Of a stretch of 64,000 bases of DNA, positions 7,000 to 54,576 are shown piece after piece (position 1 is the first letter of the stretch; the number at the start of each line of letters is the position of its first letter). The stretch is from Candidatus Bathyarchaeota archaeon (GTDB lineage Archaea; Thermoproteota; Bathyarchaeia; Bathyarchaeales; Bathycorpusculaceae), in contig CAWAKC010000003.1 in assembly GCA_963782525.1 (NCBI GenBank), forward strand, positions 192,001 to 256,000, given 5' to 3'. The notes under the pieces are model-generated. The model made no database searches. It had not been told where the DNA came from and saw only the letters and a program-made list of their open reading frames with translations. Both the position numbers and the translations under genes were made by a program.

Positions 7000-8562
7000 T
7001 TATTCAAAAGCCTCTTGGTCGAGATAGTATTTTCCGTTGACTTCTACGAACATTTTTGTTTGCTCTCTACGTCTTTCCATGATTCTTACAAATATTCGTG
7101 ACAAACCCAGTTCTTTAGCTGTCATGGCAGTTTGGGGGCTGGTGGCTCCTTTTTCTTGGAATTTTTGGATGATTTGCTGGATTTTCTCATCTCTCCAGCC
7201 TTGTGGCTCTTTTGGTTCTTGTTGGCTTGGTGGTGGAGGAGGTGGGGTTGGGGCAAGGATTGGCGCAGATTGTATTGGAACTTGCGTTTGTTGCTGTTGG
7301 GCTACAACGCGGTTTGTTTTGCCTTCATTGTCAGGGCCATTTCCACTGTTGCTTATTTTCGGTGCTTCAGAGGGTGATGCAGCCTTATGTTGACGTTTGC
7401 GCCATAAGAGAATTATGAGGATCAGTACTATAACGATAACTATGATCACTATTAGCCATTCAATCGTACCAAAACTGGGTGAGCCTGAGCTGGGGGTAGG
7501 CGAAGTAGACGTAGTTGGGATTGGTGTTGAAGAGGTTGTTGTGCTCGGTGAAGAAGACGTAGTTGGATTAACGGAAGGGGAGGTTCCTGAGCTACCTGTT
7601 ATCACTTTTGCGGTATTGCCGTCGTTGATGACAGCGAATATTTCGCCTTTGCCAAGGTCGTAAACTAAATTGTTGACGTTTATGGAGGCTTCATCAACTA
7701 TGGCATTGTTGCTTTCAGAAATAATGATAAGATGCTGGACAGGTACGATTATTTCGTCTCTAGCAGGATTGTAAGCTAGGGTCTGGGGGTCCCCTCCATA
7801 GACGCCTAGTGAAATTTCTTTTACCACCGTGTTGGTTTGATCTGATATTACGGAAACCGCTGCGGCGTTATAATCAGCGACGAAAATCTCGCCTTTACTG
7901 GAAGCATAGGCTAATCCTTCAACAGCATTTCCTCCCATATCAATGGTTGCAACCACTGTATTGTCGCTGTCTCTTATCACCGAGATACTTGGGGCGCCCG
8001 AATTGGATACGAATATTTCGTTTTTGCCAGAATCATATACTATGCCAGTAGGTGAGTCTCCTACGGTTATTGTTGCAACCACGGTGTTAGTGCTGTCTGA
8101 TATTACAGATACAGAGTGGGAATCGGCATTGCACACAAAAACTTCACCTTTAGAAGAATCATAAGCTACTCCACGGGGGTTACTTCCCACAGTCACGTTT
8201 GCGACCACACAGTTAGTGCTGTCTGAAATTATTGAAACTGTGTTGTCACCGGAATTAGCGACGAAAATCTCACCCTTTCCGGAATCATAAGCTATTTCTC
8301 GAGGATATTGCCCGACGGGTATAGTTGCAACAACAGCGTTGGTGATATCCGAAATAACAGAAACAGTGCCGTCACCAAGATTGCAAACAAAAATCTCGCC
8401 CTTTCCAGAATCATAAGCTACACCGTAAGGAAAGTGTCCCACGGTTATTGTAGCAGATACTGCAAGTGTTGATGCCGCGTTAACCAGATTGACCGCTGAC
8501 AAAATAAAAATCATAATGAATAATAAGACTAAAAGTTTCGAAACTTTAAGTTTCATAGACAT
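7000..8562 (-). CDS. YVTN/YncE-type beta-propeller surface protein with Ser/Thr linker, TM helix and cytoplasmic wHTH-like domain
   Basis: Signal peptide; repeated VG..P.GVAYDSGKGEIFV.N....VSVISD.TN.VVATI units; TM WLIVIIVIVIVLILIILLWRKR; Pro-rich linker; C-terminal AMTAKELGLSR...FVEVNGKYYL. Confidence 0.9.
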   Translation of the reverse strand: MSMKLKVSKLLVLLFIMIFILSAVNLVNAASTLAVSATITVGHFPYGVAYDSGKGEIFVCNLGDGTVSVISDITNAVVATIPVGQYPREIAYDSGKGEIFVANSGDNTVSIISDSTNCVVANVTVGSNPRGVAYDSSKGEVFVCNADSHSVSVISDSTNTVVATITVGDSPTGIVYDSGKNEIFVSNSGAPSISVIRDSDNTVVATIDMGGNAVEGLAYASSKGEIFVADYNAAAVSVISDQTNTVVKEISLGVYGGDPQTLAYNPARDEIIVPVQHLIIISESNNAIVDEASINVNNLVYDLGKGEIFAVINDGNTAKVITGSSGTSPSVNPTTSSSPSTTTSSTPIPTTSTSPTPSSGSPSFGTIEWLIVIIVIVIVLILIILLWRKRQHKAASPSEAPKISNSGNGPDNEGKTNRVVAQQQQTQVPIQSAPILAPTPPPPPPSQQEPKEPQGWRDEKIQQIIQKFQEKGATSPQTAMTAKELGLSRIFVRIMERRREQTKMFVEVNGKYYLDQEAFE

Positions 8563-9325: not shown

Positions 9326-9407
9326 TAGCTTGACACCGTCGTTTAAACCGTCGTTACAACATTATCTAAAAAAACAGGGGCAGGTCGTACCGGACTTAAC
9401 CCCGAAA

Positions 9408-11030
9408 CAGACTGTGTGAAAAGTCCTATAGTCCACTTACCGTTAAGCTTAAAGCTAGCTTCAGAACAACTGAAAAGCCATGAGCGAACATGTAAACGGA
9501 ACTCACAGAGACCAAACAGTGCTGTTTCCAGACACCATCGACAAATATGTTGACAAAGAAAATCCCGTCAGGTTCATTGACGCATTCGTTGAAAGCCTCA
9601 ACTTGGAAAAGTTGGGGTTCAAACACTCAAGCCTGGCCGACACTGGAAGACCATCTTACAATCCTTCAGACCTTCTCAAGCTCTATGTTTATGGCTACCT
9701 CAACCAGGTAAGATCCAGCAGGAAACTGGAGAAAGAATGCTACCGCAACGTCGAAGTCATGTGGCTCATGAAAAAGCTGTCTCCAGACTTCAAAACCATC
9801 GCAGACTTCAGAAAAAACAACGTAGACTGCATCAAAGGAGTATTCAAAGAATTCGTTTACCTCTGCAGGAGCTTGGACCTTTACGGTGCGCAACTTGTAG
9901 CGATTGATGGAACCAAATTTAGGGCTGTCAACTCAAAAAGCAACAACCTCAACGAGAAAACCGTTGCGTTGAGGCTTAAGCAGACAGAGGAAAAGATAGC
10001 ACAATACCTCAACGAATTAGATTCTAATGATGCCAACGATTCAGAGGACGATGATAATGCACCTGCTGATGAGCTTAGGGAAAAAATAGGCCAGCTTGAA
10101 GAGAAGAGGCAGCAATATGAGCAAATTCGAGAGCAGATGAAGGCTACAGGCCAAAGGGAGGTTTCACTTGTGGATCCAGACAGCCGTTTAATGCGAGTTG
10201 ATAGTCAACGGCTTGAAGTTGGCTACAATATTCAAACTTCCGTTGATGCAAAACAGCACCTCATTGTCGATTATGACGTGATAAATATCTCCACTGATCA
10301 CCATCAGCTGGTTAAGGACGCTTTAGCAGCGAAGGAAACCTTAGGTGTGGATAGGCTAGCTGTTTTGAGTGACAAGGGTTTCTACGTCGAGAAAGATGTT
10401 GCAGGTTGTGAGGATAATAATATACCCTTTTCATGCCTATACCTGGGGCTTTGAATCCATACAAGAGCGTTGGCATTCCTGAGCCTGAATTTTACTCTGA
10501 CAAATTTGTTTATGATGCCGCTAAGGACGTGTATGTTTGTCCTGTGGGAAATGAGATGCCTTTTTGGAAGCGTAGTAACCGCGGCAAAGGTTTTGATGGT
10601 AGGCTGTATAGGTCGAGGTGTTGTGATTCTTGTTTGGTGAGAGGTAGGTGTACTAGGAATAAGCGTGGACGGTATATGTTCAGGGGTGAATATGATGGGG
10701 CGGTTGATCGTTTAAGGGAGCGGTTGAAGGGTTCGGAGGGCAAAAAGATGCTTCGTTTGAGGCGGTTGTTGGCGGAGCATCCGTTTGGGACGATGAAGCG
10801 GGCTTTTAATCAGGGTTATGTGCTTTTGAAGGGTCTTAGGAAAGTGAGAGGAGAGGTTGGTTTCACTATGTTGGCTTACAATATGAGAAGGGCTATCAAT
10901 ATTCTTGGAGTTGGAATGCTAATAGGTTTGATTAAAGCGTAAGGAAAAAGAAAGTAAGTGCAGGTAATCGAAGACAAGAGATTAGGCGCCAGATATCTCA
11001 GGCTTTAGCGGTGAGTTTTAACACAGTCTG
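9408..11030 (+). mobile_element. IS1182-family insertion sequence, copy 1 (1623 bp)
   Basis: TIRs CAGACTGTGTGAAAAGTC / CAGACTGTGTTAAAACTC; 4-bp TSD GAAA at 9404-9407 and 11031-11034. Confidence 0.93.
9480..10942 (+). CDS. IS1182-family DDE transposase, split by a frameshift at ~10425
   Basis: GRPSYNP, SSRKLE, PDFKTIADFR, AIDGTK, DPDSRLM, GYNIQ, SDKGF; second ORF has the Cys cluster and EHPFGTMK. Confidence 0.92.
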
Positions 11031-11748
11031 GAAAGGGTATGAGTCCCTTCACCTAAATTCTTTGAATTAGGCTATTTTGACGAGTTGAACTATGATATGA
11101 AGCCTCGCTCTCCCTAATCAATCAGAGAACAAGTCCGCCGAGTCGCAGACCTGAACAGGTTCAAGTCCAAGTGATGCCTCTTCAGAAACTAACCTTCTTT
11201 TCCTAAGTAGGGGCATTTCGAGTCAGCATCTAATTTTTTCTTAAAGTAATCAAAGGGCCAAGCCTAAGCGGTGTGGTTAGAAAGAGTGTTTGATGAAAAC
11301 TCCTTTGTATAGGCCGAGCTGGCGTTTTCTATGTATTCGTTGATTTCTTGTAGTAGGCTGGGTGTGTTTTGTTGGAGTGGATTTGGGCTTGTTGTTGGTC
11401 TTGGAAGTGCGTGGTTAGGGTTTGGCGTGCGTTATCGCTGGAGTGGTGTAACCTTATTACTCATATGTCCTTTTCCAAACATTAATCGAACACTGATTTC
11501 AACAGTAAGAACTCCCCTTGTATATGCAGTTGCTACATCCAGGATTAGTAAAATATCTACTCTTACTCAAAAAGAATCCATCAAACAACTAATATACGCC
11601 CAAGTTACATTTCAGGTTTTGCAAGCAAAACACTTGATTGACAGAAAATAGGTATGGTACTGCAAAGCGATTGATTGATGGGTTACTCAAAGTGCTCTTA
11701 GAAATAAAATGGATTGAAGCACACTAAAATTTGGCGTTTCCTTTTGTG

Positions 11749-19702: not shown

Positions 19703-20414
19703 CTAATAAGCACAATCAACATTTCAGTTTTTCCTAAGCAACAAAGAATCATCACAAGCATTCCAAGTAATCCAGATGGTTTTTTTCTGATAAGGGCAAG
19801 TTACCTAGACGACTCGTTATGCTAATCATTGAACAGTTGGTGAATGGAGGAAAATATTGCGCTTGTAGCACATTACAACAAGAAAAAAGATTTGCTTACT
19901 CTGATTATTGTGGCAGTTCTTGGTTTGGCAAAGGTTTCTTCTTTGTCAGGTCCTGTTGTGCCTTAGTTAAGTCTTTGAAGCCGTAGGTTCCAACTGGCGA
20001 CCAACCTGCTTCCGGCATAACCCCTGGCACTAACATGATTGTGTTTGTTTGCGATTGCTGACTTAACACGCAGAGCAAAAAACCAAAAACGTACCAAGAG
20101 GCAGGAGTATGAGTTGAAGTATATTGCCTACGCTTTTTGAAATCGCAAGGCAACTCGTAGATTCTATTCCCATTTGCCGTTTGTTTGCTTAAACTGCATC
20201 TGAACCACACGGCAATCCTCACACCAAATCCGCTACATCTTCAAAACAGATTCGCCCTGGTACGCCGCGCTTTTTTTGCCCTGGTGGCAAGTACAAGGGA
20301 GTTGAAAACTGTGTGTTTGATCCTTTAATTTGAACGGTTAAAAGCGAGCGCTAAGCGCACATAATATCGTAATTTATGCCCAATATTGCAAAATAACCTC
20401 AAATTAAGGTTATT

Positions 20415-20491
20415 TGGTGCCGAGGGCAGGGTTTGAACATGCGACGACTCGGTCTTCAGCCGAGCGCTCTCCCAGGCTGAGCTACCTCGGC
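20415..20491 (-). tRNA. tRNA-Phe(GAA), CCA encoded
   Basis: GCCGAGG acceptor, CTCGG-CTGAAGA-CCGAG anticodon arm; one T-stem mismatch (GCATG/CCTGC). Confidence 0.92.
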
Positions 20492-38639: not shown

Positions 38640-38983
38640 CCACAACCTTAGCGGAGGCTTTAGTCGGAAAGTTTTTAGCCGTTCAAATTAAAGAGAAATC
38701 ATCGTAGTTTTCAACTCCTTTGTACGTGCCACCAGGGCAAAAAGCGCGGGGTATCAGGGCACATTAACCATAGATAGAGAGTAAATGTTAATTGGGAATG
38801 ATTTTTACTGGTAAATTGGGGCTAGTACCCCCACTCAGCGCCTAGAGTAAAAAATCAGAAGTTCAAGTGTTAAGAAAAGTTTTGAACCATTTTGGGTATG
38901 GGGACGGGCGCCTTCAAACTTGGTCAAAATTTGCAAAGATTAGTCTTATTCAATGAGTTTGAGTAAGGGACCCATACCGTGTA

Positions 38984-40606
38984 CAGACTGTGTTAAAACT
39001 CACCGCTAAAGCCTGAGATATCTGGCGCCTAATCTCTTGTCTTCGATTACCTGCACTTACTTTCTTTTTCCTTACGCTTTAATCAAACCTATTAGCATTC
39101 CAACTCCAAGAATATTGATAGCCCTTCTCATATTGTAAGCCAACATAGTGAAACCAACCTCTCCTCTCACTTTCCTAAGACCCTTCAAAAGCACATAACC
39201 CTGATTAAAAGCCCGCTTCATCGTCCCAAACGGATGCTCCGCCAACAACCGCCTCAAACGAAGCATCTTTTTGCCCTCCGAACCCTTCAACCGCTCCCTT
39301 AAACGATCAACCGCCCCATCATATTCACCCCTGAACATATACCGTCCACGCTTATTCCTAGTACACCTACCTCTCACCAAACAAGAATCACAACACCTCG
39401 ACCTATACAGCCTACCATCAAAACCTTTGCCGCGGTTACTACGCTTCCAAAAAGGCATCTCATTTCCCACAGGACAAACATACACGTCCTTAGCGGCATC
39501 ATAAACAAATTTGTCAGAGTAAAATTCAGGCTCAGGAATGCCAACGCTCTTGTATGGATTCAAAGCCCCAGGTATAGGCATGAAAAGGGTATATTATTAT
39601 CCTCACAACCTGCAACATCTTTCTCGACGTAGAAACCCTTGTCACTCAAAACAGCTAGCCTATCCACACCTAAGGTTTCCTTCGCTGCTAAAGCGTCCTT
39701 AACCAGCTGATGGTGATCAGTGGAGATATTTATCACGTCATAATCGACAATGAGGTGCTGTTTTGCATCAACGGAAGTTTGAATATTGTAGCCAACTTCA
39801 AGCCGTTGACTATCAACTCGCATTAAACGGCTGTCTGGATCCACAAGTGAAACCTCCCTTTGGCCTGTAGCCTTCATCTGCTCTCGAATTTGCTCATATT
39901 GCTGCCTCTTCTCTTCAAGCTGGCCTATTTTTTCCCTAAGCTCATCAGCAGGTGCATTATCATCGTCCTCTGAATCGTTGGCATCATTAGAATCTAATTC
40001 GTTGAGGTATTGTGCTATCTTTTCCTCTGTCTGCTTAAGCCTCAACGCAACGGTTTTCTCGTTGAGGTTGTTGCTTTTTGAGTTGACAGCCCTAAATTTG
40101 GTTCCATCAATCGCTACAAGTTGCGCACCGTAAAGGTCCAAGCTCCTGCAGAGGTAAACGAATTCTTTGAATACTCCTTTGATGCAGTCTACGTTGTTTT
40201 TTCTGAAGTCTGCGATGGTTTTGAAGTCTGGAGACAGCTTTTTCATGAGCCACATGACTTCGACGTTGCGGTAGCATTCTTTCTCCAGTTTCCTGCTGGA
40301 TCTTACCTGGTTGAGGTAGCCATAAACATAGAGCTTGAGAAGGTCTGAAGGATTGTAAGATGGTCTTCCAGTGTCGGCCAGGCTTGAGTGTTTGAACCCC
40401 AACTTTTCCAAGTTGAGGCTTTCAACGAATGCGTCAATGAACCTGACGGGATTTTCTTTGTCAACATATTTGTCGATGGTGTCTGGAAACAGCACTGTTT
40501 GGTCTCTGTGAGTTCCGTTTACATGTTCGCTCATGGCTTTTCAGTTGTTCTGAAGCTAGCTTTAAGCTTAACGGTAAGTGGACTATAGGACTTTTCACAC
40601 AGTCTG
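38984..40606 (-). mobile_element. IS1182-family insertion sequence, copy 2 (1623 bp, inverted relative to copy 1)
   Basis: Same length, TIRs and translated ORFs as copy 1; flanks TGTA/TGTC (3 of 4 TSD match). Confidence 0.93.
39072..40534 (-). CDS. IS1182-family transposase with the same frameshift as copy 1
   Basis: 324-aa and 169-aa ORFs identical to those at 9480-10942. Confidence 0.92.
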
Positions 40607-40616
40607 TGTCGGGGGT

Positions 40617-40636
40617 AAGTCCGGTACGGCCCACCA
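40617..40636 (+). repeat. Direct repeat of the tRNA-Val 3' end (putative attR)
   Basis: AAGTCCGGTACGGCCCACCA; 16 of 17 nt match 23931-23947, followed by CCA. Confidence 0.85.
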
Positions 40637-43074: not shown

Positions 43075-43788
43075 CTATATCCCTTTGTTTCCGAACTTGT
43101 TGTAATAGGCAAAATCTTCAATGTCGCGACGTACCCTCAGATACTTGGATGCCCCAGTAGGATAACCTAAACGGCAGCAATAGGCAATTTTTAGTTGATC
43201 AGGTATACCTAAAATCTTTTTAAGCTCTTTTTCCACTGGCGGCGCTGCGAAAGCACTCAGAATCTGCAAACTAATGCCCAGTGATTGAGCCATAAGCCAC
43301 ATGTTCTCCATCACACAGCCCAGACTCATGAATCCCAAAACGTCGCCTTCAGAAGCAGGTGCTCTCTTTTGGGGGTCATAAACCAAAATTAAAAGACATG
43401 GGCTACCCCTGATGGATTGAGTCAATGGCATGGGCTCGCTTTTGCGGGCAGCTTCTGACATTTTTGACGGATCTACCCATGCTGGCGGAAACATCGCTCC
43501 CAAAATTCCGGTCTTCTTCTTGAGCAATTCTTCCTTGGAGAACGAAAGCTGCTCATAATTTTCCCTTAGAAACACCTCTGAAATGCGGGATTTTACGTTC
43601 CCAATGATTTCTAAAATCTCTTTGTCTTCTACGACGATTACCTCGAAGTTTTGCATGTTATGCGCTGTTGGTGCCCATCGTCCAGCATCCAAGATTTGCC
43701 GCAAATCCTCTTTGGACACCTTTTGATTTGGGTCAAAGGGAACTCGGGCTGATTGTCTTTCTTGAATTATTCGTCGGACTTCATTCAT
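43075..43788 (-). CDS. Nitroreductase family protein
   Basis: ERQSAR, RWAPTAHNMQ, ENMWLMAQSLG, LGYP. Confidence 0.93.
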   Translation of the reverse strand: MNEVRRIIQERQSARVPFDPNQKVSKEDLRQILDAGRWAPTAHNMQNFEVIVVEDKEILEIIGNVKSRISEVFLRENYEQLSFSKEELLKKKTGILGAMFPPAWVDPSKMSEAARKSEPMPLTQSIRGSPCLLILVYDPQKRAPASEGDVLGFMSLGCVMENMWLMAQSLGISLQILSAFAAPPVEKELKKILGIPDQLKIAYCCRLGYPTGASKYLRVRRDIEDFAYYNKFGNKGI

Positions 43789-44804
43789 TTTGATTCATCT
43801 TCCCTTTTTAATACTGCCCTAAAATGAACCTTCGCCGTCATCATTCGATCAAACGCAACTGCTGCTTGTTCAAGAGGAAAAACCTCTACCATTGGAACAA
43901 CATGTGTAAGAACACTGAAGTTTAGGGTATCAGCGGTGTTTCCTCCCACCCAACCACTAACGGACCGAACCGCACGCATCAGTTGTGTTGGAGAAATCTG
44001 CATAGGCTCATAAACGAAGGTAACAATGATTAGTTGTCCGTTGCGGGCAAGACCTTCAACGAGGTCTGCGATCGCCTTGCTGTTGGGAGCTGTGCAGAAT
44101 ATGGCTTTTGCACCACCAAGCTTCATCAGTTCCTCGCTGGGATTGGACTTTTCTGAGTCGATGTAGTATTTTGCGCCGAGCTTGCGCGCTAATTCTTCTT
44201 TTTCTTTGCCTCGGGAAACAACAGCGGTCTTCATGCCAAGTCTTACCGCGAACTGCAAAGCTAAATGTCCTAAGCCGCCGAGTCCTTGAATAGCCACTAA
44301 GTCTCCACCCTTTGCCGCGCTGCTCTTTATTGCTCCTAAAGTGGTTGCGCCAGCACACAGAAGTGGAGCAGCTTCCACAGAAGATAATTCGTCAGGGATA
44401 GGTGTTAAGACATCCATGCGGGCAACCATGTACTCAGCATATCCATCGTCGGTTGAAATGCCCGTTGCCAAGGGACTCTCGCAAGCCCAATAATCGCCCC
44501 TTAAGCATGACCTGCACTTTTTGCAGTGTCCGCCACGCCAGCCAACGCCGACTCGTTGCCCAACTTTCCAATAATGCGATTCTGAACCCAACTTGGCGAT
44601 CGTGCCAACAACTTCGTGTCCAGGAGTTCTTGGATACTGAAGCCCAGGGAAGCCTCCGTATTTGACGATGGCGTCGCCGTGGCATATTCCGCAGGCTTCT
44701 ACTTTTAACAGAACTTCGTGTTCTTGTGGTTCTGGAACATCATTTTGTACCAGAACAAATTCTCCGCCTGGATGATTAACCTGGATTGCTTTCATTAAAT
44801 TCAT
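43785..44804 (-). CDS. Zn-dependent alcohol dehydrogenase
   Basis: CGICHGD, GHEVVG, CxxCxxC..C, GLGGLG. Confidence 0.95.
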   Translation of the reverse strand: MNLMKAIQVNHPGGEFVLVQNDVPEPQEHEVLLKVEACGICHGDAIVKYGGFPGLQYPRTPGHEVVGTIAKLGSESHYWKVGQRVGVGWRGGHCKKCRSCLRGDYWACESPLATGISTDDGYAEYMVARMDVLTPIPDELSSVEAAPLLCAGATTLGAIKSSAAKGGDLVAIQGLGGLGHLALQFAVRLGMKTAVVSRGKEKEELARKLGAKYYIDSEKSNPSEELMKLGGAKAIFCTAPNSKAIADLVEGLARNGQLIIVTFVYEPMQISPTQLMRAVRSVSGWVGGNTADTLNFSVLTHVVPMVEVFPLEQAAVAFDRMMTAKVHFRAVLKREDESK

Positions 44805-45772
44805 AAAATTACCTATTCAGCCTAACCGATTCTGAATATTTAAACATGCTTTTTCGTTAAACCATCCATTTTGTATACAAAAGCATCGCCCAACACACTT
44901 TTTGCTCTAACCCTTGCGCTCGCCTCAAAAAACTGCAAAGATAGTTAAAAATTGCGAAAAATTCGAAATCGAGCGAACTATATATAATCATACATTTAAT
45001 TTGGAACATAAATCGGGGAATCTTCGATTTTTCTAAAGCCGCAGGGCGAAATTGGAAAAAAAAGCAGGTGACTCAAGTGAACGATTAAGTTAAGTTTTCT
45101 TAGTTAGACTTCGGGTCGGACCATTAAGGCTCTCAGATGATAAAAACAGCATAAAACAACTCTCAATTATGTTTTTTTGCTAACACGCTTTGAGCCAGCC
45201 GCTGGTTTAGATGCTCCTTTGACACCATAATCTTTCATTCGGCACCTTGACCTGCTCAATTCACAGCGTTCAGACTATCTTTTTAGTCAACAGGTATGCC
45301 GATTAATTAGTTGCTCGTGTCTTCCTGCGCTAAAGTTTTGCTCTTCAGAAGCGTGAGAGCGTTTTGCTTTGCGAAAAACAATCGAATGTACATTTTTTAC
45401 ATTAAAAAGTTAAAAAAGCACTAATGTAATTAAATGAAATTAGTCATAACTGTCTATTTATTCGTCCACACTTCTGTTTTTGCAATAGGATCACCGAAGA
45501 ATAGCGAAATTTTACAAATCAAACAGAAAACTCGAAAAAATGGGGAAGACTATTTCAGAAAGGCCAAACTATAGATTTTAAACCGAAGTCAAAAAAAAAG
45601 GGTGCCGAAAAATGGTTTGGGGAAAGTAACCGAAGCTTGCAAAGGAGTTACAAAATGTGTTTGGGTGATGCTTTTGTATACCGTTTCCACTCATGCCCCA
45701 CCTCGCTATCAAACCCAATCTTCTATCGACATAATTTTTGCGCTCTTTGCTTCAATTTTTGGAGAACTGCTT

Positions 45773-46474
45773 ATGAGTGTTGAACGGAATCTGTTAATTT
45801 CAATCCTAAAATTAACCAAAGAAGGACCAGTTTTAATTGAAAATGTCAATAAAGAGGCAAGGATACCATCCACTGTTTCATTGGAGTTGCTGGAAAAACT
45901 GCAAAACGAAGACCTCCTTTATCTAAACAACGGCATTATAGAAGCAGAAAGTAGCAGCAGAATCAAATTAGCAGTTAAAGCAGTATCTCAAGGAGCAGTC
46001 ATCGAACATATCAGTAACCTACTTTGCTGGCAAGAGTTTGAAGAAATCGCCGCCATAGCGCTCAAAAACAACGGGTACATTGTGAAAAATAATGTAAGGT
46101 TCAAACATGGAACCAAACGATGGGAAATAGATGTGGTGGGCTGCAAAAAACCCCTGGTTGTCTGCATTGATTGTAAGCATTGGCAGCATGCAATTTCATC
46201 GTCGGCTTTGAAGCGAATAGTTGATTTGCAATCGCAGAGAACTCACGCCCTAGCGGATTCATTACCCAATCTTAAATTAAAATTTGAATGTGATAAGTGG
46301 GAAAAAGCCAAGTTTATCCCAACCGTGCTGTCGCTTGTCCCCAGCGCTTACAAATTCTACGACAACCTGCCGGTGGTCCCCGTTCTCCAGCTTCAAGATT
46401 TTATATGTCAACTGCCAGCCTATATAGGGGAATTAAAAATTTTTTCCAAAACCTTCAAAACGCTTAAGACATAA
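45773..46474 (+). CDS. wHTH plus PD-(D/E)xK (Mrr/NERD-like) endonuclease
   Basis: WQEFEE, EIDVVG, IDCKHW; probable ATG at 45773 after GGAG. Confidence 0.8.
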   Translation: MSVERNLLISILKLTKEGPVLIENVNKEARIPSTVSLELLEKLQNEDLLYLNNGIIEAESSSRIKLAVKAVSQGAVIEHISNLLCWQEFEEIAAIALKNNGYIVKNNVRFKHGTKRWEIDVVGCKKPLVVCIDCKHWQHAISSSALKRIVDLQSQRTHALADSLPNLKLKFECDKWEKAKFIPTVLSLVPSAYKFYDNLPVVPVLQLQDFICQLPAYIGELKIFSKTFKTLKT

Positions 46475-47332
46475 CTTTTAGGATTGAAGTTTTAGCAAGC
46501 TTAAATGCTGGATAAAGGATTAAGATGAACATTATAATTAAGGCTGCAAGTAACCACAAGGCTATTTCCGCAATAGTAAGGCTAGTAACAAGAGGATTAG
46601 TCATTAAAATCATCAAAGTTGTAATCATGCCGAACGAAATGCCCACGGCAAAACTGGAAAAAAGCACAATTGCCGCTTGAATCGCTGAAATATTGATTAT
46701 TATTCTTGGTTTGGCGCCTACAGCTCGCAAAATGACGAATTCTTGGCGTTGCTCGTCCATCGCAAGAATCATAAAACCCACAACACACAATGCCAGCTGA
46801 AGCTAAGATAAAAAGTGGTAGAAGCATTATTGATTGCCAAGTTGAACCCAGAAAAGCCAAGTTTTGAGTCACTACTCCGCTAAGATCAAAGCCGTCTAAG
46901 TCTGTATTAGTCGCTTTAACCATGTTTCTTATTTCGCTGATTAACGTTTCTCGGTTAACTGAATTGTTTAGCTTAATTAACAGCAGGTTAGGGAAGGCGA
47001 CGTTTTCTGCGACCGTCAAAGTAGAAACCAAGTTGTAGCCTTGAAAAACAAAACCTACTAGATTACAGCGAAAATCAGCCAGGAAATCCTCATCTTTCTC
47101 TGTTAAATCTTGCTCGGCAACGATTATTTTTCCTTTCGTAGGCCTGTCAACTCCACTTATAATGTTGAGGAGGGCGGTTTTTCCTGATCATGAAAACCCA
47201 CATATAACGGACGAATTTTGCCCGTGGAATCTCTAGATTTATGTCTTTTAGAACAGTAACTTTGATGTTGCCCAATTCGTAAGTCTTTTCCAAGGCCTGT
47301 GTAGAAACCATTAGTCCATTATCTTGGCTCAT
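46464..47332 (-). pseudogene. Deleted LolD/FtsX-type ABC operon remnant (ATPase N-half fused to permease C-terminus)
   Basis: LEKTYELG..., SGKT, GFVFQGYNLVSTLTVAENVAFP joined directly to permease EFVILRAVGA; several frameshifts. Confidence 0.8.
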
Positions 47333-47406
47333 TAAAGCTTACCTGCTTTCGCTGATTAATCGTCAGTTGTCTTAAGGTAATAAGTTTGTGGTACGTTTAC
47401 TTGGCT

Positions 47407-47844
47407 CTACTGCTGATAGCTTGTGTCGATGTTGAGGTTTCCTCTATCCCGCTTAAGAATCCTTACCTTGTCTGGGAGCTTGGTTTTTTCCCAGTCCGTC
47501 CAGCTGATTTCTTTGAACAGCCACCGTTTGCCCAGATGCGCTGCGACTACAGCGTGTTTGTTTTCGTTGCCTGCTGGTATGAATTGGTCGAGGAAACGGA
47601 AAAGTTTGTCGATCTGCATTCTTGGGAAATATGCGTAGTAGGTGGCGTTTTTTACTTCGAATGCGTACATATGTTTGCCTTTGCGGGCCATGACGTCTGG
47701 TAAGGGGTTGAGGCTTGGGTTGCTTACGGGGATGCGGACAGCGTTGTAGCCTTTTTTCTGCAGGAGTTTGACTAGGACGGTTTCGCTGTAAAATCCTCTT
47801 TTGCGCCAACGCCTAAGTTTGATGCGGTCAATTTCAGTGGTCAA
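47407..47844 (-). CDS. hjc: Archaeal Holliday junction resolvase (Hjc/Hje family)
   Basis: KRGFYSETVLV, GYNAVRIPVS, LPDVMA, AFEVK. Confidence 0.85.
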   Translation of the reverse strand: MTTEIDRIKLRRWRKRGFYSETVLVKLLQKKGYNAVRIPVSNPSLNPLPDVMARKGKHMYAFEVKNATYYAYFPRMQIDKLFRFLDQFIPAGNENKHAVVAAHLGKRWLFKEISWTDWEKTKLPDKVRILKRDRGNLNIDTSYQQ

Positions 47845-49657
47845 CGATTGTCCCTTTCTTGCATGTATCTATTGGAGCTCTTGAGATAAAAAATTGTTCC
47901 CTTAGAGCATTGAAAAAATGTGTTTGGGGATGCTTTTGTATCCAACACGTTTAGAAGGTGAGATTGGAGACTGCTGGTGAACATAAATATCTTATGTATT
48001 ACTAATACAACCATAATCACCAATAATGTATTTGGCAACATTCACCGGTTAAAAATAATGGGTATTTAGACTACAGTAAGCACCTGAAAAGCCATCGTTG
48101 ACTTGAAAGAGAGCTCGATACAATGTTTATCTTAGAACCCAAAAACATGAACAAACCGCCGTCAACCCAAAAAATAAGAACAAAAACGTCCTATGAAAAA
48201 CAGAAACGCCGCAGAAGTAGCAAAAATCAGCCGAAGAAAAAAAACCAAAAAATGGCTCAGCCCCCTACTGGAAAACAGCCTGAAAAAAAGATTTCCTTAA
48301 AAGTTGCTTACAAACCCAAAAAGATGACAAAAAAAATTGGTAGCCACAGAATTTCAGAATAAATTTTTATGCAAAAAATTAGCAAAGTTTTCATTACTAG
48401 CAAAAAAAGGCGTTTTTCTTCGAAGGATAGCCGAAAAAATAGGCTTTGGCTTCGCATGGAGATTTTCGAAGGTACTTATATGAGGCTCCGGTAATGTCCA
48501 TGCCAGTTGTTTTGGACCTAAGTGATTAAGCCTTAATTGAAGGTATTTCATTATTTTAGGCTTAAATTGAGCGTTTAGATTATGTTTTCCATAGAAAAAA
48601 ATCACGGTTTTTTGTATTAACCGCATTTCGGAGCAAAACAACCACTATGACATAGGTTTAATCCAAAAAAATCCCAAATAGGAGTTATTTAGAGAAAAAA
48701 AGCTTAACGGCAGCCCGTAAATTTTGTGGCAAAAAATTTTTCCGCTTTTGTCAGAATTGATTTTTTTTAATCTTAATTTTCCAAAACTCACAAGTGTTTA
48801 TGCAACTTAGACTTTTTGTCTTGCAAAATGAAAAAAGTAATCGAACAAACAAAGGTCAATTGCTTAATGCTGTTTTACAAACCTAATGCGATCTAATGGA
48901 AAAAAATCTTTGGCGCTGTGGTTGTTTTTTCTAAGACCACATCCAGAATTTTCAGATTTGCTTCGTGACATACTCAGTCGCATTGAAATTACTGAAAAGA
49001 AAAATAACCTCACCAACTCTCACTTGAAACTTACAAATGGGTTTTCTAGCCACTTTTCTTTTAAGAACTGAAAAATGATTTGCTGGTGCAGAGTTTGGGT
49101 TTTCTAGTGGTTGCCTAAGTTAACGGAATTTCTCTTTGACAAAAAAATCGTTGCAATAGTAAGCGACAGTTGAGCAAGCAAGTGTTGATGTTTTCGTTTT
49201 AATGAAAATGAGTGTTTGACGGTTCTGTGGCTGCATGATTTTTTAACTTCTGTTCAAGCAAGACTGCAATACTGCAGGTGTTAGACAAGTCCCTATCTGC
49301 CCAATGTTGTAGGGGTTGCTTGATTGAAAAACAACTTTCAGTGTTATCGGTGAAAATTGTATTGCTCGCAAAAACATCCATCACTAAGCACAACCGACCT
49401 CACGTGTAACATTCAGCCTGCAGATCAACCAAACTATCCCCTATGGGAAAAGATTTAATTCATTTGAGAGTCTCTTAAGAAGATCTAAGAAATTTGGAAA
49501 TCGTCGATAGCAAAAATCGCTAGTTGAAGTAAATGTTTTGATTTCGCGAACAAAACACACTTGGGAACTCAAAGTTTCTGTATACAAAAGCATCACCCAA
49601 ACACATTTTTTACTTTAAGTTCTAGAAAACTTTTTCAGAAATAAACCGATACAAACC

Positions 49658-50089
49658 ATGAGGATAGTTGCAATGTCAAATTTCAAAGTAGTAACAAAAG
49701 CAACCAAGTTCACCACACAAGGAGAAATAGACTTTATAGATTTATCAGACCAGGTCCAAAAAGAAGTCTTTGATTCAGGAATCAGAAACGGAATCGTTCA
49801 TGTTTTTTCTCCACACGCAACCGGAATTTTGGTTCTGACAGAAAATGACGATGCCCTCCTCGAAGACATCAAAGTTTTCCTTGAAGAATTGGCGCCAAGA
49901 CGTGGTCGGTATAAGCATCCGTCTAATGCCCACTCGCATTTGCGATCGATGCTTCTTCCCCCTGACAAGACGCTGCCTATAGTTGATGGGAAGGTTGAGT
50001 TTGGGACTTGGCAGTCTCTGCTCTTTGTTGAAACCGATGTGTACCCCCGGGAACGAAAAGTTATTATCCAAGTCTTGGGCGAGGGATAA
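49658..50089 (+). CDS. yjbQ: YjbQ (UPF0047) family protein
   Basis: PHATG, NAHSHLRS, GTWQS. Confidence 0.92.
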   Translation: MRIVAMSNFKVVTKATKFTTQGEIDFIDLSDQVQKEVFDSGIRNGIVHVFSPHATGILVLTENDDALLEDIKVFLEELAPRRGRYKHPSNAHSHLRSMLLPPDKTLPIVDGKVEFGTWQSLLFVETDVYPRERKVIIQVLGEG

Positions 50090-50607
50090 AATTTAGTTTG
50101 CCCCCCGATTTCAAATCCACAATTGTTAAGAATTTTAGATTTCGTTCTTCGTAAAAGCAAAATATCTAATGAAATATGAAAGTTTAACAATTTAAAGCTA
50201 AATACCCAAGGTTGAATAGGCTATTTTTACTATTTATTGTAAAAAGCGCTTAATCGAACTGAATTCGCAGACTGAAAACAGAAACAAAATAGAAACAAAG
50301 TGCTAACAGCAGCCCTGACGCCTAAAAACCAAAAATAAAGCTACGTAAAATCAGTCAAAGAAAATGAAAAGGCTAAACTTATAGCCAAAAAGTAGCTTTT
50401 GCAAATAATTCTCCGCTAAATTCAACCATAAATGCCAAATGCGCACGCTAATGTCCATTTGCTTTACGTTAATTCAATTCAGATTTTGACAAGAATTCAT
50501 TTTTGCAAAGCAAAAAAGTGTAGGAAGAGATTGGATACTCCCTTTTCAGGTTTCCTTCAGCTTCACAACTGCATGATTATATAAGCTTCGGAGAAATTCG
50601 GAAAAAC

Positions 50608-51348
50608 TTAGCCTTTCCGCTCCGTCCGAATCCGCTTTGATGATCCTTTAGGCCGCATGCGCGCTTTCTTCTTAACTTCAGCTCTCTGCGAAGGCTTTTC
50701 TTCCAAAGCATCAGGCTGCATTTCTTCTATGGGTAAAACGTCGACAGCCTCGGAAAAATCTTCAATAGTTGCCTGTTGTGCCCCATTTTGTTGCATCGTT
50801 TCTATGGCTCTATCCACATCGCCTGGTTCAGCATTAATGCCTAAGGTTGCGTCCATGAGGACGACCACTTCAAAACCAAGCTTGCAAGCGTCAACAACTG
50901 TGTTCACGACGCAGTAATCCGTTGCTAATCCACCGACAAAAAGCCGTTTGACGCACAGGGTTTGAAGGTCGTGTTCAAGGCTTGTGCTGTCAAAAGATGA
51001 GTAAGCTTCCCGTTCAGGGTTTGTACCTTTGGAAATAACAATTGTGTGGGGGGACAGTTTGAGATCAGGACTAAATTTTGCTCCAGCCGTTTCTTGCACA
51101 CAATGTGGTGGCCATGGACCACCCTGCGCCTCAAAAGAAACATGGTTTTGGGGGTGCCAGTCTCTCGAAGCTAAAACATGCCCGTTCGCTTCTACAAAAC
51201 GTCGTATGTAATCGTTCAGGACGGGGATAATTTTGTCACCGTCGTCGATGGGTATGGCTCCGCCGGGCAAAAAATCTTTCTGGATGTCGGTGATTAAAAG
51301 GGCATCAGAGTTTTTTATAACATAGTTTTTACTCAAACAAGTCACCAT
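50608..51348 (-). CDS. pncA: Nicotinamidase
   Basis: DIQKDFLPGG, RDWHP, WPPHCVQ, KG..AYSSF, GLATDYCV. Confidence 0.93.
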   Translation of the reverse strand: MVTCLSKNYVIKNSDALLITDIQKDFLPGGAIPIDDGDKIIPVLNDYIRRFVEANGHVLASRDWHPQNHVSFEAQGGPWPPHCVQETAGAKFSPDLKLSPHTIVISKGTNPEREAYSSFDSTSLEHDLQTLCVKRLFVGGLATDYCVVNTVVDACKLGFEVVVLMDATLGINAEPGDVDRAIETMQQNGAQQATIEDFSEAVDVLPIEEMQPDALEEKPSQRAEVKKKARMRPKGSSKRIRTERKG

Positions 51349-51479
51349 TTTTAAAATCGTTTTGTTATGCTAAAACTAACTTAATTAACGTGAAGATATG
51401 GATAAACTTTTTTACCATTTGTTTTTGCCGGCATGGAAAGGTAATTAAGGCTTCATGAGACTATTTTGTGGTGAAAAAG

Positions 51480-51750
51480 TTGGCAATTTTAGCGTATGTT
51501 CTTTTCAAAGTGGCTTCAGGAACCGAAAGAGCGGTTGCCCAAAAAACTTACCGAATTCAAAGAAGTTAAGGAGGCAGACATTGTTTTCGGTGAATATGAT
51601 GTAATTGCAAGCTTGACGATTGATAGCTTGGAAAAGCTGGAAGAGTTCGTTTCAGAAAGCATCAGGAACGTTCCAAACGTGCTCGTTACTTCGACGATGA
51701 TTATTTCAAGAGAGTATAAGGGCAAGAATACTAAACCAAAAGTCAAGTAG
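51480..51750 (+). CDS. Lrp/AsnC ligand-binding-domain protein, frameshift in A-run at ~51545
   Basis: AYVLFKVASGTE...VFGEYDVI...TSTMI. Confidence 0.85.
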
Positions 51751-52466
51751 TTTATATTTGAATTTTAATGTTCAGTTCTTCAGGACCAAATTTTAGCGTA
51801 GCTTTTTTCGACTAGAGACAGCGCCCTTCGTTAGTCAGGTGGCTTCACTATAAACTCCTCTATGGTAAATTATGAATATTTCAGCTATTTTGATCATATA
51901 ATCATGGATGGTTTTAACTCTTTAGTGTAAAAAATTAACGTTCGATAGTTTTTCGCTTAACAACGAAGGTCCACTCAGCCTAAACGCGTAAACTTAGCAA
52001 CCCAGTTGAGCTAACGACTTAACCCAAAAAAACAAAACGCGCTTCTTAAGAAGAAATAAAGTTCTAAAAAAAAATTTATGAGCCCGAGAAAACGGGAAAT
52101 CGCAGTGATAACAGATTTTACCTGACTTTGCTGTCTGCTTTAATCGCTTGAAATGGATATTGCGACCAGTCTCTCAGAAAAACCATGTTCAACCGGGAGC
52201 CAAAACGGAGATTTTTTGTGTTTACCGATTATTTTGGACCTGAAATCAAAAATTAACAACTTGCTCTTGCCATAACTGTGAGATTCCTTATTTTAGCTTA
52301 GGCAACAAACAATGAATATATAAGGTTCGTTGAACTTCGATTATTTTGCATTTTTTAGACTGCCAGAATGCGGTTTGAACTTTTTCTATGTTTGGGCGAT
52401 GCTTTTGTATACAGCCAAGGATATGCTTATCTTTCAACCAAGCCATAACAGTAATCAGGCGTCTGT

Positions 52467-54008
52467 ATGCAAGCAAAAAACAAAACCCCCAGCATTACAA
52501 GCCGCGAAATGCGTGCCTTAGAAGTAAACGCACAATACTTTGGCGTCAGTCTGCTTCAGCTTATGGAGAACGCTGGACGCAACGTAGCCCAGGAAACCAT
52601 CACACGTTTCCAAAAAAACAAGAAAGCAGCGGTGTTTTGTGGTTTAGGTGGAAATGGCGGCGATGGATTCGTTGCAGCTAGGCATCTTTTGGCTGAGGAT
52701 TTTGAGGTTACTGTTGTTTTAGTCGGAAGAAGTCGAGAAATTAGCCATAAAGCTGCGCTTAGCAACTGGGTTATTCTTGAGTCTCTTAAGGATAAAGTCA
52801 CTTTGATAGAAGTTTCTGATAGTTCACTTATTCCCAAGGTGAATGCAGGCATAATTATCGACGCTTTGCTTGGAACAGGAACAAAAGGAAAGCTGAAACC
52901 GCCAATCGCCCAAGTAGTCGACTACACAAACTCGTTGAATGGCTTCAAGATTGCAGTTGACGTCCCTACAGGTATTGATTCAGACACCGGCGAAGTGTTA
53001 GGCACTGCCGTAAAAGCCGATTTAACCATAACCTTCCACAAGGCAAAGCCGGGGCTGGATAAAGCCAAAAAATACATTGGCGAACTCGAAGTGGTCGACA
53101 TTGGTTTACCAATTGAGTTGGAGCGGTTTGCTGGTCCAGGCGACGTTTCCCTTGTCACTAAACCGCGCAATCCATCAGCTCACAAGGGCGACTTTGGACG
53201 TTTACTCGTTATTGGTGGAAGCGAAGTTTACTCTGGAGCGCCTACATTGGTTTCCTTAGCTGCCATGCGTACAGGAGTTGATATTGTTTATCTTGCGGCT
53301 CCAGCCAAAACGGCTACCACAATTTCCTCCATGTCCCCCGATTTGATCACGATAAAGCTTGAAGGAGAAAACCTCAACCCAGCAAACATTGAAGCAATCA
53401 AACCTTACTTAGGCATGGTTGACGCTGTTGCAATGGGACCGGGGCTGGGCTTGAACCCTGAAACCGTAAAGTTTGTCAAAGCATGTGTGGAAGAGGTTGA
53501 AAAAGCAAAGAAACCGCTGCTTTTGGATGCCGACGGATTGAAAGCGTTTGCAAAATTCAAGCGATTACTAAAGGTTCCGCTGGTGTTGACGCCACACGCA
53601 GGAGAATACGAAATACTTACGGGAGAAACATTGCCTGACAATCAGGAGGAACGCGTCTTGACTATACAGAAAACCGCCAAGAAACTCAACGCCACCATCC
53701 TTGTTAAGGGCAAAGTTGACATCATATGCGATGCCAACCGTTCAAAATTGAATTTCACGGGTAATCCAGGAATGACAGTTGGAGGAACGGGCGACGTCCT
53801 CAGCGGCATTGCCGGCGGCTTGATGGCAATGAACGTAGACCCCTTTGAGGCGGCCGTTGCCGGTGCCTTTGTGAACGGTGCTGCAGGCGACTTTGTTGCA
53901 AATGAAATTGGCTTTCACATGGTGGCAACTGATATAATCGATTGGATACCCCACATGTTTGAAGATCCGATGAGTCATTTGAAGGTGCGCAAGCCAAATG
54001 GAAGCTGA
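52467..54008 (+). CDS. nnr: Bifunctional NAD(P)H-hydrate epimerase/dehydratase
   Basis: LMENAG, GGNGGDG, DALLGTG, HKGDFG, GPGLG, DADG, TPHAGE, GGTGDVL. Confidence 0.96.
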   Translation: MQAKNKTPSITSREMRALEVNAQYFGVSLLQLMENAGRNVAQETITRFQKNKKAAVFCGLGGNGGDGFVAARHLLAEDFEVTVVLVGRSREISHKAALSNWVILESLKDKVTLIEVSDSSLIPKVNAGIIIDALLGTGTKGKLKPPIAQVVDYTNSLNGFKIAVDVPTGIDSDTGEVLGTAVKADLTITFHKAKPGLDKAKKYIGELEVVDIGLPIELERFAGPGDVSLVTKPRNPSAHKGDFGRLLVIGGSEVYSGAPTLVSLAAMRTGVDIVYLAAPAKTATTISSMSPDLITIKLEGENLNPANIEAIKPYLGMVDAVAMGPGLGLNPETVKFVKACVEEVEKAKKPLLLDADGLKAFAKFKRLLKVPLVLTPHAGEYEILTGETLPDNQEERVLTIQKTAKKLNATILVKGKVDIICDANRSKLNFTGNPGMTVGGTGDVLSGIAGGLMAMNVDPFEAAVAGAFVNGAAGDFVANEIGFHMVATDIIDWIPHMFEDPMSHLKVRKPNGS

Positions 54009-54576
54009 CTCAGAACAACCAAAGTCAGACTTACCTGTTAGAATAACCATTTACCACGCTGCCCAAGATGACCCAAAAAAAAACACTGCATTACGGCTTA
54101 AACGTCGAGGACTTGCCCGTATCGTTACAAGTGCAAGATTCTTGCCTAAGCGAGCCATCGTTCTAAACCCCTTTGGCGAAATCGCGTTTTCTCCAGCGGA
54201 CAAGGAGAGGCTTGAGCAGTTTGGAGTAGCGGCTTTAGATTGCAGTTGGGAACATGCCCAGAAAGTTATGGAAAAACAAGTTAAAGGAACTAGCCGCTGC
54301 TTGCCAATTTTAATTGCAGGTAACCCAGTGAATTATGGCAAGCTTACCAAGTTGACAACTGTCGAAGCCATCGCGGCTGCCTTGTACATTGCGGGTTTCA
54401 AGAAAGAGGCTGAGGATATTTTATTAATTTTTCCTTGGGGACATACATTTTTCGAGTTAAACCAAACGTTCCTTGACAATTATGTAACTGCTAAGGATAG
54501 CGCTGACATTGTAGAAATGCAAACGAGGCTTTTGAAACCCCAAAAACGCGAGCCAAGCAAGAATGTCTTTGAGTGA
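53998..54576 (+). CDS. tsr3: 16S rRNA aminocarboxypropyltransferase Tsr3 (DUF367)
   Basis: QDDPKKNT, LDCSW, LIAGNPVNYG, WGHTFFELN. Confidence 0.95.
   Translation: MEADSEQPKSDLPVRITIYHAAQDDPKKNTALRLKRRGLARIVTSARFLPKRAIVLNPFGEIAFSPADKERLEQFGVAALDCSWEHAQKVMEKQVKGTSRCLPILIAGNPVNYGKLTKLTTVEAIAAALYIAGFKKEAEDILLIFPWGHTFFELNQTFLDNYVTAKDSADIVEMQTRLLKPQKREPSKNVFE

Follow-up and report, generated by a model that had tools for sequence, protein, structure and literature searches.

A long conserved sequence box, clustered in one syntenic block of Bathyarchaeia, lies at near-constant spacing upstream of a small gene set

We analyzed a 64,000-nucleotide stretch of a Bathyarchaeia genome (C3:192001-256000 of a 2.87-Mb assembly in 12 contigs; hereafter the window) and found five copies of an asymmetric 31-bp box, consensus AAAAnTGTGTTTGGnTGATGCTTTTGTATAC, within a block of ~7.5 kb at 44873-52412. 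The box recurs beside the same genes in related species, and its distance to their start codons and TATA-like words is nearly constant. From these comparisons we favor, with modest confidence, the reading that the box is a docking site for a putative sequence-specific protein that acts at the promoters of a small, conserved group of genes. Bathyarchaeia are abundant. To our knowledge, no genetic system exists for them, and their cis-regulatory code and the start of their replication are almost wholly unknown. Positions given below are those of the window unless a contig is named.

The five copies (c1 to c5) had been picked out beforehand by a reading of the letters without database searches (the sequence-only reading), at 44873, 45652, 47913, 49580, and 52387, and both direct reading and repeat finding place them there. 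Copy c2 (45652..45681, plus strand) scores 49.6 bits against the weight matrix described below and lies 91 nt upstream of the start codon of a gene for a winged helix-turn-helix (wHTH) nuclease. Copy c4 (49580..49609, minus strand, 53.0 bits) is its exact reverse complement, as had been claimed: the two share a 30-mer with 0 mismatches, and 100 shuffled sequences gave 0 matches of this kind. The A-rich end of c4 is 48 nt from the start of the divergent gene yjbQ/UPF0047. Copy c3 (47913..47943, plus strand, 30.9 bits), which is one base shorter and ends in GTATCC, has its A-rich end 68 nt from the start of divergent hjc, and c5 (52387..52412, plus strand, 39.2 bits), whose A-rich 5' part has diverged, lies 54 nt upstream of the nnr start. 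Copy c1 (44873..44903, minus strand, 33.9 bits) points its GTATAC end at an alcohol dehydrogenase (ADH) gene, 68 nt upstream of the gene start, and its A-rich end into a noncoding spacer, gapA. Pairwise repeats link all five copies: D7, I6 (33 nt, 97%), I8 (c1/c3, 88%), I12 (c4/c5, 96%), and I17 (c1/c5, 22 nt, 100%). A partial copy reported at ~45608 is also present and reads AAAAATGGTTTGGGGA at 45609..45624 (plus strand); it comprises the 5' half only and stands 28 nt before c2.

The box is composite, with a semi-conserved 5' half, AAAAnTGTGTTTGG, and a near-invariant 3' half, GATGCTTTTGTATAC. From 156 instances in relatives we built a weight matrix that spans 43 columns and holds 40.5 bits, a figure inflated in part because the instances were selected on a 15-nt core. 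Applied to the whole genome, the matrix gives exactly eight sites above 12 bits, with none scoring 12 to 16 bits. Within the window its matches are c1 to c5 only, in line with the earlier statement that the 64 kb hold no further copy. Confinement to this locus, a prospect raised with the original observation, is not borne out: three of the eight sites lie elsewhere (C7:299278, C7:354844, and C1:526993, the last one weak), although the box remains strongly concentrated here. A literature search with the box sequence found no paper.

Conservation was assessed with a degenerate 21-mer, allowing ≤2 mismatches, in 61 related genomes. The box occurs in 45 of the 61 and in all 36 same-genus genomes, at 2 to 13 copies each, and a reversed-pattern control gave a total of 2 matches over the 61 genomes. 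In each genome the copies cluster again, and the 12 relatives whose clusters were fetched have the same gene order: L38e, c1, gapA, c2 reading toward the wHTH-nuclease gene, an ABC transporter, hjc, c3, a second spacer (gapB), c4, yjbQ, an isochorismatase gene, a gene for an AsnC-type domain, and c5 reading toward nnr and tsr3. This genome departs from that order by an ADH-nitroreductase pair between L38e and c1 and by a broken ABC transporter. Across species of Bathyarchaeia, hjc, yjbQ, and nnr thus keep the motif as a neighbor, where the sequence-only reading had proposed to look for it. It had also described every copy as bordering a long AT-rich tract, which is true of this genome but not of relatives, in which the tract before c5 is only ~70-90 nt and c1 adjoins the 3' end of the L38e gene. 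Long tracts of this sort are common here, the genome having 298 open reading frame (ORF)-free gaps of ≥500 nt.

Outside the block, the box is found at three sites: divergently upstream of gdh (glutamate dehydrogenase); between nth and a ribbon-helix-helix (RHH) gene; and divergently upstream of a mazG-like gene, where it is also upstream of sec61-beta. The gdh, mazG-like, and nth pairings recur in other genomes. In a different family of the same order (f7; genomes G052 and G060), a 5-kb stretch carries three copies of a variant of the box, GTTGATGCTTTTGTATCC, which stand beside the nuclease gene and divergently upstream of both yjbQ and the ABC operon. The association of site with gene is kept across species. 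Between the box and sec61-beta we also noted a GC-rich hairpin-like stretch (GCAACCCCCG...CGGGGTTGC, C7:354700-354850), located in a 165-nt leader.

Such positional conservation bears on the idea that the copies are the ends (terminal inverted repeats) of a miniature mobile element. The pairs c2/c4 and c3/c4 are indeed inverted. However, the boxes keep their places and their gene neighbors in all 36 genus genomes and also in a second family, there are only eight copies, some of them unpaired, and no target duplications are seen in the printed flanks. We give the mobile-element explanation practically no chance, positional conservation having effectively refuted it.

Distances from box to gene were taken from tblastn maps and printed upstream sequences, some of them counted by hand. 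Across genomes, the nnr start follows GTATAC by 53 to 61 nt, and the start of the nuclease gene is 79 to 94 nt from the box in most genomes compared (48 nt in G017). For the divergent genes, the distance from the A-rich end is 61 to 72 nt for hjc and 48 to 60 nt for yjbQ. Box-to-start distances are constant within a few bases across species, and the intervening sequence is unconserved; nor is the sequence downstream of the box conserved between different copies. Fixed spacing combined with conserved neighbors is the signature of a protein-binding upstream element.

The position of the TATA words is consistent with this. In this genome, such words (TTTAAATA, TTTATATA, and CTTATA) peak 30 to 50 nt before start codons, and each gene adjoining a box has a TATA word between the box and its start codon. 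At hjc and yjbQ a TATA-like word begins 36 nt from the core edge, ~20 nt past the A-rich end; at gdh it begins 32 nt from the core edge, and at nnr the start of a conserved TATA-like word, GCTTATCTT, is 14 nt past GTATAC. When 164 instances are taken together, AT-rich 8-mers are most frequent 12 to 23 nt beyond the A-rich end (32-34% versus 7-16% in most other bins), and a second, weaker peak lies 36 to 52 nt beyond GTATAC. The sites are promoter proximal and keep a constrained distance from the core promoter. The sequence-only reading, which had proposed a replication origin or chromosome-organization locus, stated that copies scattered genome-wide at a fixed distance from transcription starts would speak for a regulator instead; this is partly what we see, with eight sites and a fixed spacing to TATA-like words and start codons. 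Orientation relative to the genes does vary, as it had said, but this is no argument against a regulator: the distance from the near edge of the box to the TATA-like word is similar in both orientations.

Could the box itself be a special core promoter, with an alternative transcription factor B recognition element (BRE) and TATA box read by a paralogous TBP or TFB, for the genes and for small RNAs from the spacers? Its 3' half has a T-rich TATA-like run, TTTTGTATA, something lies downstream of every copy, and the spacers carry more promoter-like words (A1, A1', and the B2 core, described below). But each gene has, on its side of the box, a typical TATA word at the usual distance from the start codon, and the distance from GTATAC to the start codon varies from 54 to >160 nt; no Rfam family and no conserved fold was found downstream, and the box serves genes on both sides. 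We consider a core-promoter role very unlikely.

Under the favored reading, a protein would dock on the box, whose near edge precedes the TATA-like box of the neighboring gene by 12 to 23 bp; the box would thus span about -45 to -80 from the predicted transcription start. It would function both ways round, an A-rich end directed at the gene being the commoner arrangement. The genes served would be hjc (then the ABC transporter), yjbQ, nnr-tsr3, the wHTH-nuclease gene, and gdh, together with the mazG-like gene and sec61-beta, nth and the RHH gene, and lineage-specific extras. That a single syntenic block holds five of the eight sites would be explained by the proximity of five such promoters there. 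The observed sites, with their conservation, spacing, and gene associations, would reflect protein binding and transcriptional regulation, be it activation or repression. Read in this ordinary way, a conserved small regulon would join DNA repair (hjc, nth, and the nuclease) to the house-cleaning of metabolites and nucleotides (nnr and the mazG-like gene), and the specificity of the box would give a handle with which to fish for the binding protein by DNA affinity or DAP-seq.

The box resembles the upstream sites of archaeal regulators, such as Ptr2 and members of the TrmB and Lrp families, in being a conserved word just upstream of BRE/TATA, at several promoters and at the same genes across species. 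It is unlike them in being much longer and more invariant (31 bp, ~40 bits), in being asymmetric yet bidirectional, and in having five of eight sites packed into one block.

Several points weigh against a docking site for a regulator. All transcription starts are inferred, and so is the protein that binds the box. The gene set has no single theme: some members belong to repair (including the PD-(D/E)xK nuclease) or house-cleaning, an isochorismatase-family hydrolase being encoded nearby, and gdh and sec61-beta belong to neither, the functional theme being only a suggestion. In relatives, the gene that c1 faces is convergent and turns its 3' end toward the box; c3 and c4, too, are directed into a noncoding spacer. 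The box carries ~40 bits (partly inflated) versus the ~19.5 bits that, by our own arithmetic after Schneider's argument, would suffice for eight sites, and this surplus suggests more than one function or binder. Last, the block coincides with the deepest GC-skew minimum, which a plain regulon does not predict.

On contig C3, cumulative GC skew stands at +667 at 90 kb, drops to -1277 at 240 kb, and has recovered to +390 by 420 kb. Sampled every 1 kb, the curve is lowest at C3:243,000 (window 51000), inside the block. Of six minima in the assembly at ±100 kb this one is the deepest, and it persists at all window sizes tried. When the curve is drawn in 200-nt steps, its flat floor (within 60 G-C counts of the minimum) extends over 44400..53400, nearly exactly from c1 to c5. 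The skew inflection that an origin would be expected to leave is therefore present, with the block filling the floor of the minimum. Since coding-strand GC skew is ~0 (-0.000 on C3) and net gene orientation is +0.10 on the left and -0.16 on the right, the switch in skew from -0.031 to +0.022 is not due to gene orientation. Both orc1/cdc6 loci of the genome lie near small minima: at ±30 kb, a scale that gives 23 minima genome-wide, the nearest ones are 3.4 kb and 0.07 kb away. This sets the polarity, with a minimum standing for an origin. Among relatives, a closed genome, half-sampled (G003), has a local V of skew at the cluster, G014 has a steep skew fall of 190 kb ending at the cluster, and G052 of family f7 has a local minimum there.

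The two spacers inside the block are themselves conserved. The first, gapA (44904..45651), is 0.6 to 0.8 kb long in relatives and has no conserved ORF; it contains two conserved blocks, A1 (44974-44992), with a BRE/TATA-like word, CGAACnTTATATAATCATG, and A2 (45393-45416). Both words occur a second time on the minus strand, A1' at 50572..50590 in the yjbQ-isochorismatase spacer and A2' at 51911..51934 in the 640-nt tract before c5. The second spacer, gapB (47944..49579), is 1.4 to 3.4 kb in relatives and comprises B1 (47944-48140, with an anchor word at 48066-48083), the B2 core (48420-48506), in which nested inverted repeats surround a TATA-like word, GGTACTTATATGAGGC, at 48472-48486, and B2down (48507-48760). 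Its central island is single copy and present in 52 of 61 genus genomes, among them 37 of the 38 high-quality ones, and its core is a near-invariant 85 nt.

Per-column conservation in gapB has a 10-bp periodicity, judged against second-order autoregressive, AR(2), surrogates: the band P value is 0.0055 for B1 (192 columns, 23 sequences) and 0.001 for B2down (221 columns, 36 sequences). No such periodicity is found in the gapB core (P, 0.46) or, as a control, in the four blocks of an ORB origin alignment (P, 0.26 to 0.65; ORB, origin recognition box). The tract C3:61.9-63.6 kb was dropped as a second control, being multi-copy, and loci at C10:103.4-105.5 kb, on C2, and at C3:174 kb were set aside. 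Conserved positions in gapB lie on one helix face, which suggests an extended protein-DNA complex. Phasing of A/T tracts in gapA and gapB is unexceptional in this genome's sequence (top 10% to 54% of 1235 background segments), and intrinsic curvature is thus not demonstrated.

We rejected a structured noncoding RNA in the spacers, as there is no consistent fold and no Rfam family. At gathering thresholds, Rfam finds two tRNAs in the window, and noise with E>2 alone in 44800-52500; RNAalifold gives no supported fold for the gapB core, B2down, or B1 on either strand, with energies of 0 to -6.9 and unfavorable covariation. A 95-amino-acid ORF at 48354-48641 (minus strand) was likewise rejected as a gene, having stops in relatives, and spacer conservation has no 3-nt periodicity. 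The conserved spacers are DNA-level elements, neither coding nor structured RNA. Unannotated small transcripts from the repeated promoter-like words (A1/A1', A2/A2', and the B2 core) are possible.

Skew and phased spacer together lend independent support to the main rival reading, the idea that the block is an orc-distal origin or replication-linked organizing center, which we regard as possible but doubtful. The boxes would then be sites for an initiator or accessory factor that also binds at a few promoters elsewhere, and the helically phased gapB would host a higher-order nucleoprotein complex. Besides its 10-bp periodicity, gapB is conserved, single copy, nonfolding, and noncoding, and c3 and c4 face each other across it. 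The box is also like the ORB and mini-ORB sites of Orc1/Cdc6 in that conserved asymmetric boxes, some inverted around noncoding DNA, lie at a GC-skew minimum. It is unlike them in having neither the TCCA..TGGA dyad with G-string nor an adjacent orc1/cdc6; an ORB scan and a TIGR02928 search confirm what the sequence-only reading had said of the motif and of the window in this respect. True ORBs of the genus read TYCCAGTAGAA-N5-6-GGGGTG and lie elsewhere in the genome.

The closest functional analogue that we found is the ucm/UBP system of Sulfolobus. As described in PMC12141716, ucm is an 11-bp site that is essential in the unwinding element of origins, and UBP, restricted to Sulfolobales and Desulfurococcales, binds ucm plus >300 mostly intergenic sites, a precedent for one protein at origins and at many other sites. 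The reverse complement of the box core, GTATACAAAAGCATC, has an 8-mer, TATACAAA, in common with ucm as given by the oligonucleotides in that paper's methods; this match may be due to chance and is a lead only. Unlike ucm, which PMC12141716 places in ORB-type origins and at >300 sites, the box has eight sites and is not at this genome's ORB origin.

Other findings count against an origin in the block. Matches to orc1/cdc6 (TIGR02928) above the cut-off occur only at C7:365249-366322 and C10:98933-100033, with none on contig C3, and good matches in the genome-wide ORB scan only at C7:364577 and C7:365019 (an inverted copy was read at C7:364838), with none at the block. Conversely, no 31-bp box above 12 bits lies near oriC1 (the orc1-1 ORBs) or orc1-2. 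At the bona fide ORB origin the skew minimum is weak and conservation lacks the 10-bp period, so neither skew nor periodicity is a proven mark of origins in this genus. Other deep skew minima coincide with no known feature, G052 shows another minimum at a distance of 90 kb, and same-genus genomes, being syntenic, are not independent. The A/T-tract phasing of gapB is unremarkable in this genome, and three boxes lie at ordinary promoters far from the block. Of the original origin or organization proposal, then, the skew minimum and the conserved spacers stand in favor; the sites elsewhere, the promoter spacing, and the ORBs elsewhere do not fit it.

The region upstream of orc1-1 (C7:364400-365250) is a classical origin, with three ORBs (364577, plus; 364838, inverted; 365019, plus) around a stretch rich in A and T (364935-364995) and with several occurrences of the word TTCACA, ~850-870 bp of it being conserved in 28 genus genomes. 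A 2-kb ORF-free tract of 34% G+C (C10:103425-105447) lies 3.4 kb downstream of orc1-2, beside an ORB-like word with 2 mismatches at C10:105674, and could be the orc1-2 origin. A literature search on Bathyarchaeia origins gave no paper naming "Bathyarchae" among the matches listed.

The regulator and origin readings are compatible, provided that the binder serves both functions. More speculatively, and in our view rather improbably, the order would have, in addition to its classical ORB/Orc1 origin, a second origin or organizing center that is free of orc genes and ORBs. A dual-purpose protein would recognize it through the 31-bp box and, much as UBP does with ucm, would also dock at a few promoters, with gapB as the assembly platform and inversions of the block as origin-centered flips. 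Should the block serve as an origin as well, archaea would have one whose definition needs no Orc boxes, a point that metagenome coverage on closed genomes could test.

Such inversions are seen among the 14 genomes compared. Nine have the order L38e-c1-gapA...AsnC-c5-nnr, and in the other five (G005, G014, G025, G027, and G034) the whole c1-c5 segment is inverted relative to L38e and nnr, with junctions at the boxes, as expected for crossing-over between inverted c1 and c5. At least two changes of order are required on a tree built from four locus proteins. The boxes might accordingly be recombination sites bounding an invertible segment, their inverted copies crossed by a site-specific recombinase or by homologous recombination. 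The 22-nt perfect inverted identity of c1 and c5 (I17) would favor this, as would the situation in family f7, where two inverted boxes flank an ORF of 231 to 238 amino acids with a weak tyrosine-recombinase match (PF00589; E, 0.001; 19.3 bits against a cut-off of 27.1). This ORF, at L133:8598-9314 and L134:10027-10722 (G052 and G060), shows R...HxxR...Y motifs by eye.

A tblastn search of this genome (E up to 1), however, found no relative of the f7 ORF, and the 10 PF00589 matches of the genome are all outside the window, leaving no recombinase in or beside the segment. Boxes are moreover kept at single-copy promoters (gdh, mazG-like, nth), where recombination would have no obvious role, and short inverted repeats can invert without a dedicated system. 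Invertible segments bounded by short inverted repeats are known from fim, hin, and shufflon-type switches. The resemblance is that inverted copies enclose a segment that lies one way round in some genomes and the other way in others; unlike these switches, the block has no recombinase in or beside it, and its inversions are seen between species rather than within a population. Contigs of four metagenome runs yielded pieces of related strains, and the joints with 22- to 32-nt sides stem from the repeated box itself, making them uninformative on inversion or coverage. We judge a recombination role unlikely and read the inversions as a consequence of the inverted repeats, not as the purpose of the boxes. 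Origin-centered flips are said to be favored, and recurrent flips of this kind would also fit the origin alternative.

Among the genes of the block, that for the wHTH and PD-(D/E)xK (NERD/Mrr_cat) nuclease (45773..46474, plus strand) is single copy and a candidate for the binder. It was found in 50 of 61 relatives, also in genomes without a strict box match; because it is near-universal in the order, its distribution does not discriminate it as the binder. No PDB relative was found by sequence, and source names for it are merely "Holliday junction resolvase-like" or "NERD domain." Other candidate binders are an 82-amino-acid wHTH protein encoded next to the mazG-like gene, Orc1-2, and members of the Lrp/AsnC family. 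On the minus strand follow remnants of the ABC transporter (an FtsX fragment and an ATPase fragment, 46464..47332) and hjc, for the Holliday junction resolvase (47407..47844). In relatives the transporter (ATPase plus FtsX permease) is ~2.5 kb, open, and intact. Beyond gapB lie yjbQ/UPF0047 (49658..50089, plus strand), whose divergent box copy is kept in family f7 too; the isochorismatase-family hydrolase gene (50608..51348, minus strand); a gene for a stand-alone Lrp/AsnC ligand-binding (RAM) domain protein of 84 amino acids (51496..51750, plus strand); and, on the plus strand, nnr, for the NAD(P)HX epimerase/dehydratase (52467-54008), and tsr3 (53998-54576).

At the other end of the block, the Zn-dependent ADH gene (43785..44804, minus strand) is followed by a nitroreductase gene (43075-43788). 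Of the 14 genomes compared, this is the only one in which the pair (43075-44804) stands between L38e and c1; because it intervenes, c1 is upstream of a gene start here and at the 3' end of a gene in relatives.

Three further repeats were noted elsewhere in the window. A perfect 1667-nt inverted repeat (9383-11049 and 38965-40631, 27.9 kb apart), with diverged partial copies at 10583-10940/37756-38113 (75%) and 37756-38055/39074-39373 (77%), is probably either a gene duplication or an insertion sequence, with an invertible segment of 28 kb between its arms. Direct repeats with a 126-nt period and 64-81% identity (D2 and D3, 7635-8425) probably belong to a gene for a repeat-domain protein. A 46-nt inverted repeat (20265-20310 and 38706-38751, 89%) lies beside tRNA-Phe (20415-20491) and one arm of the 1667-nt repeat, and may be an attachment-site remnant.

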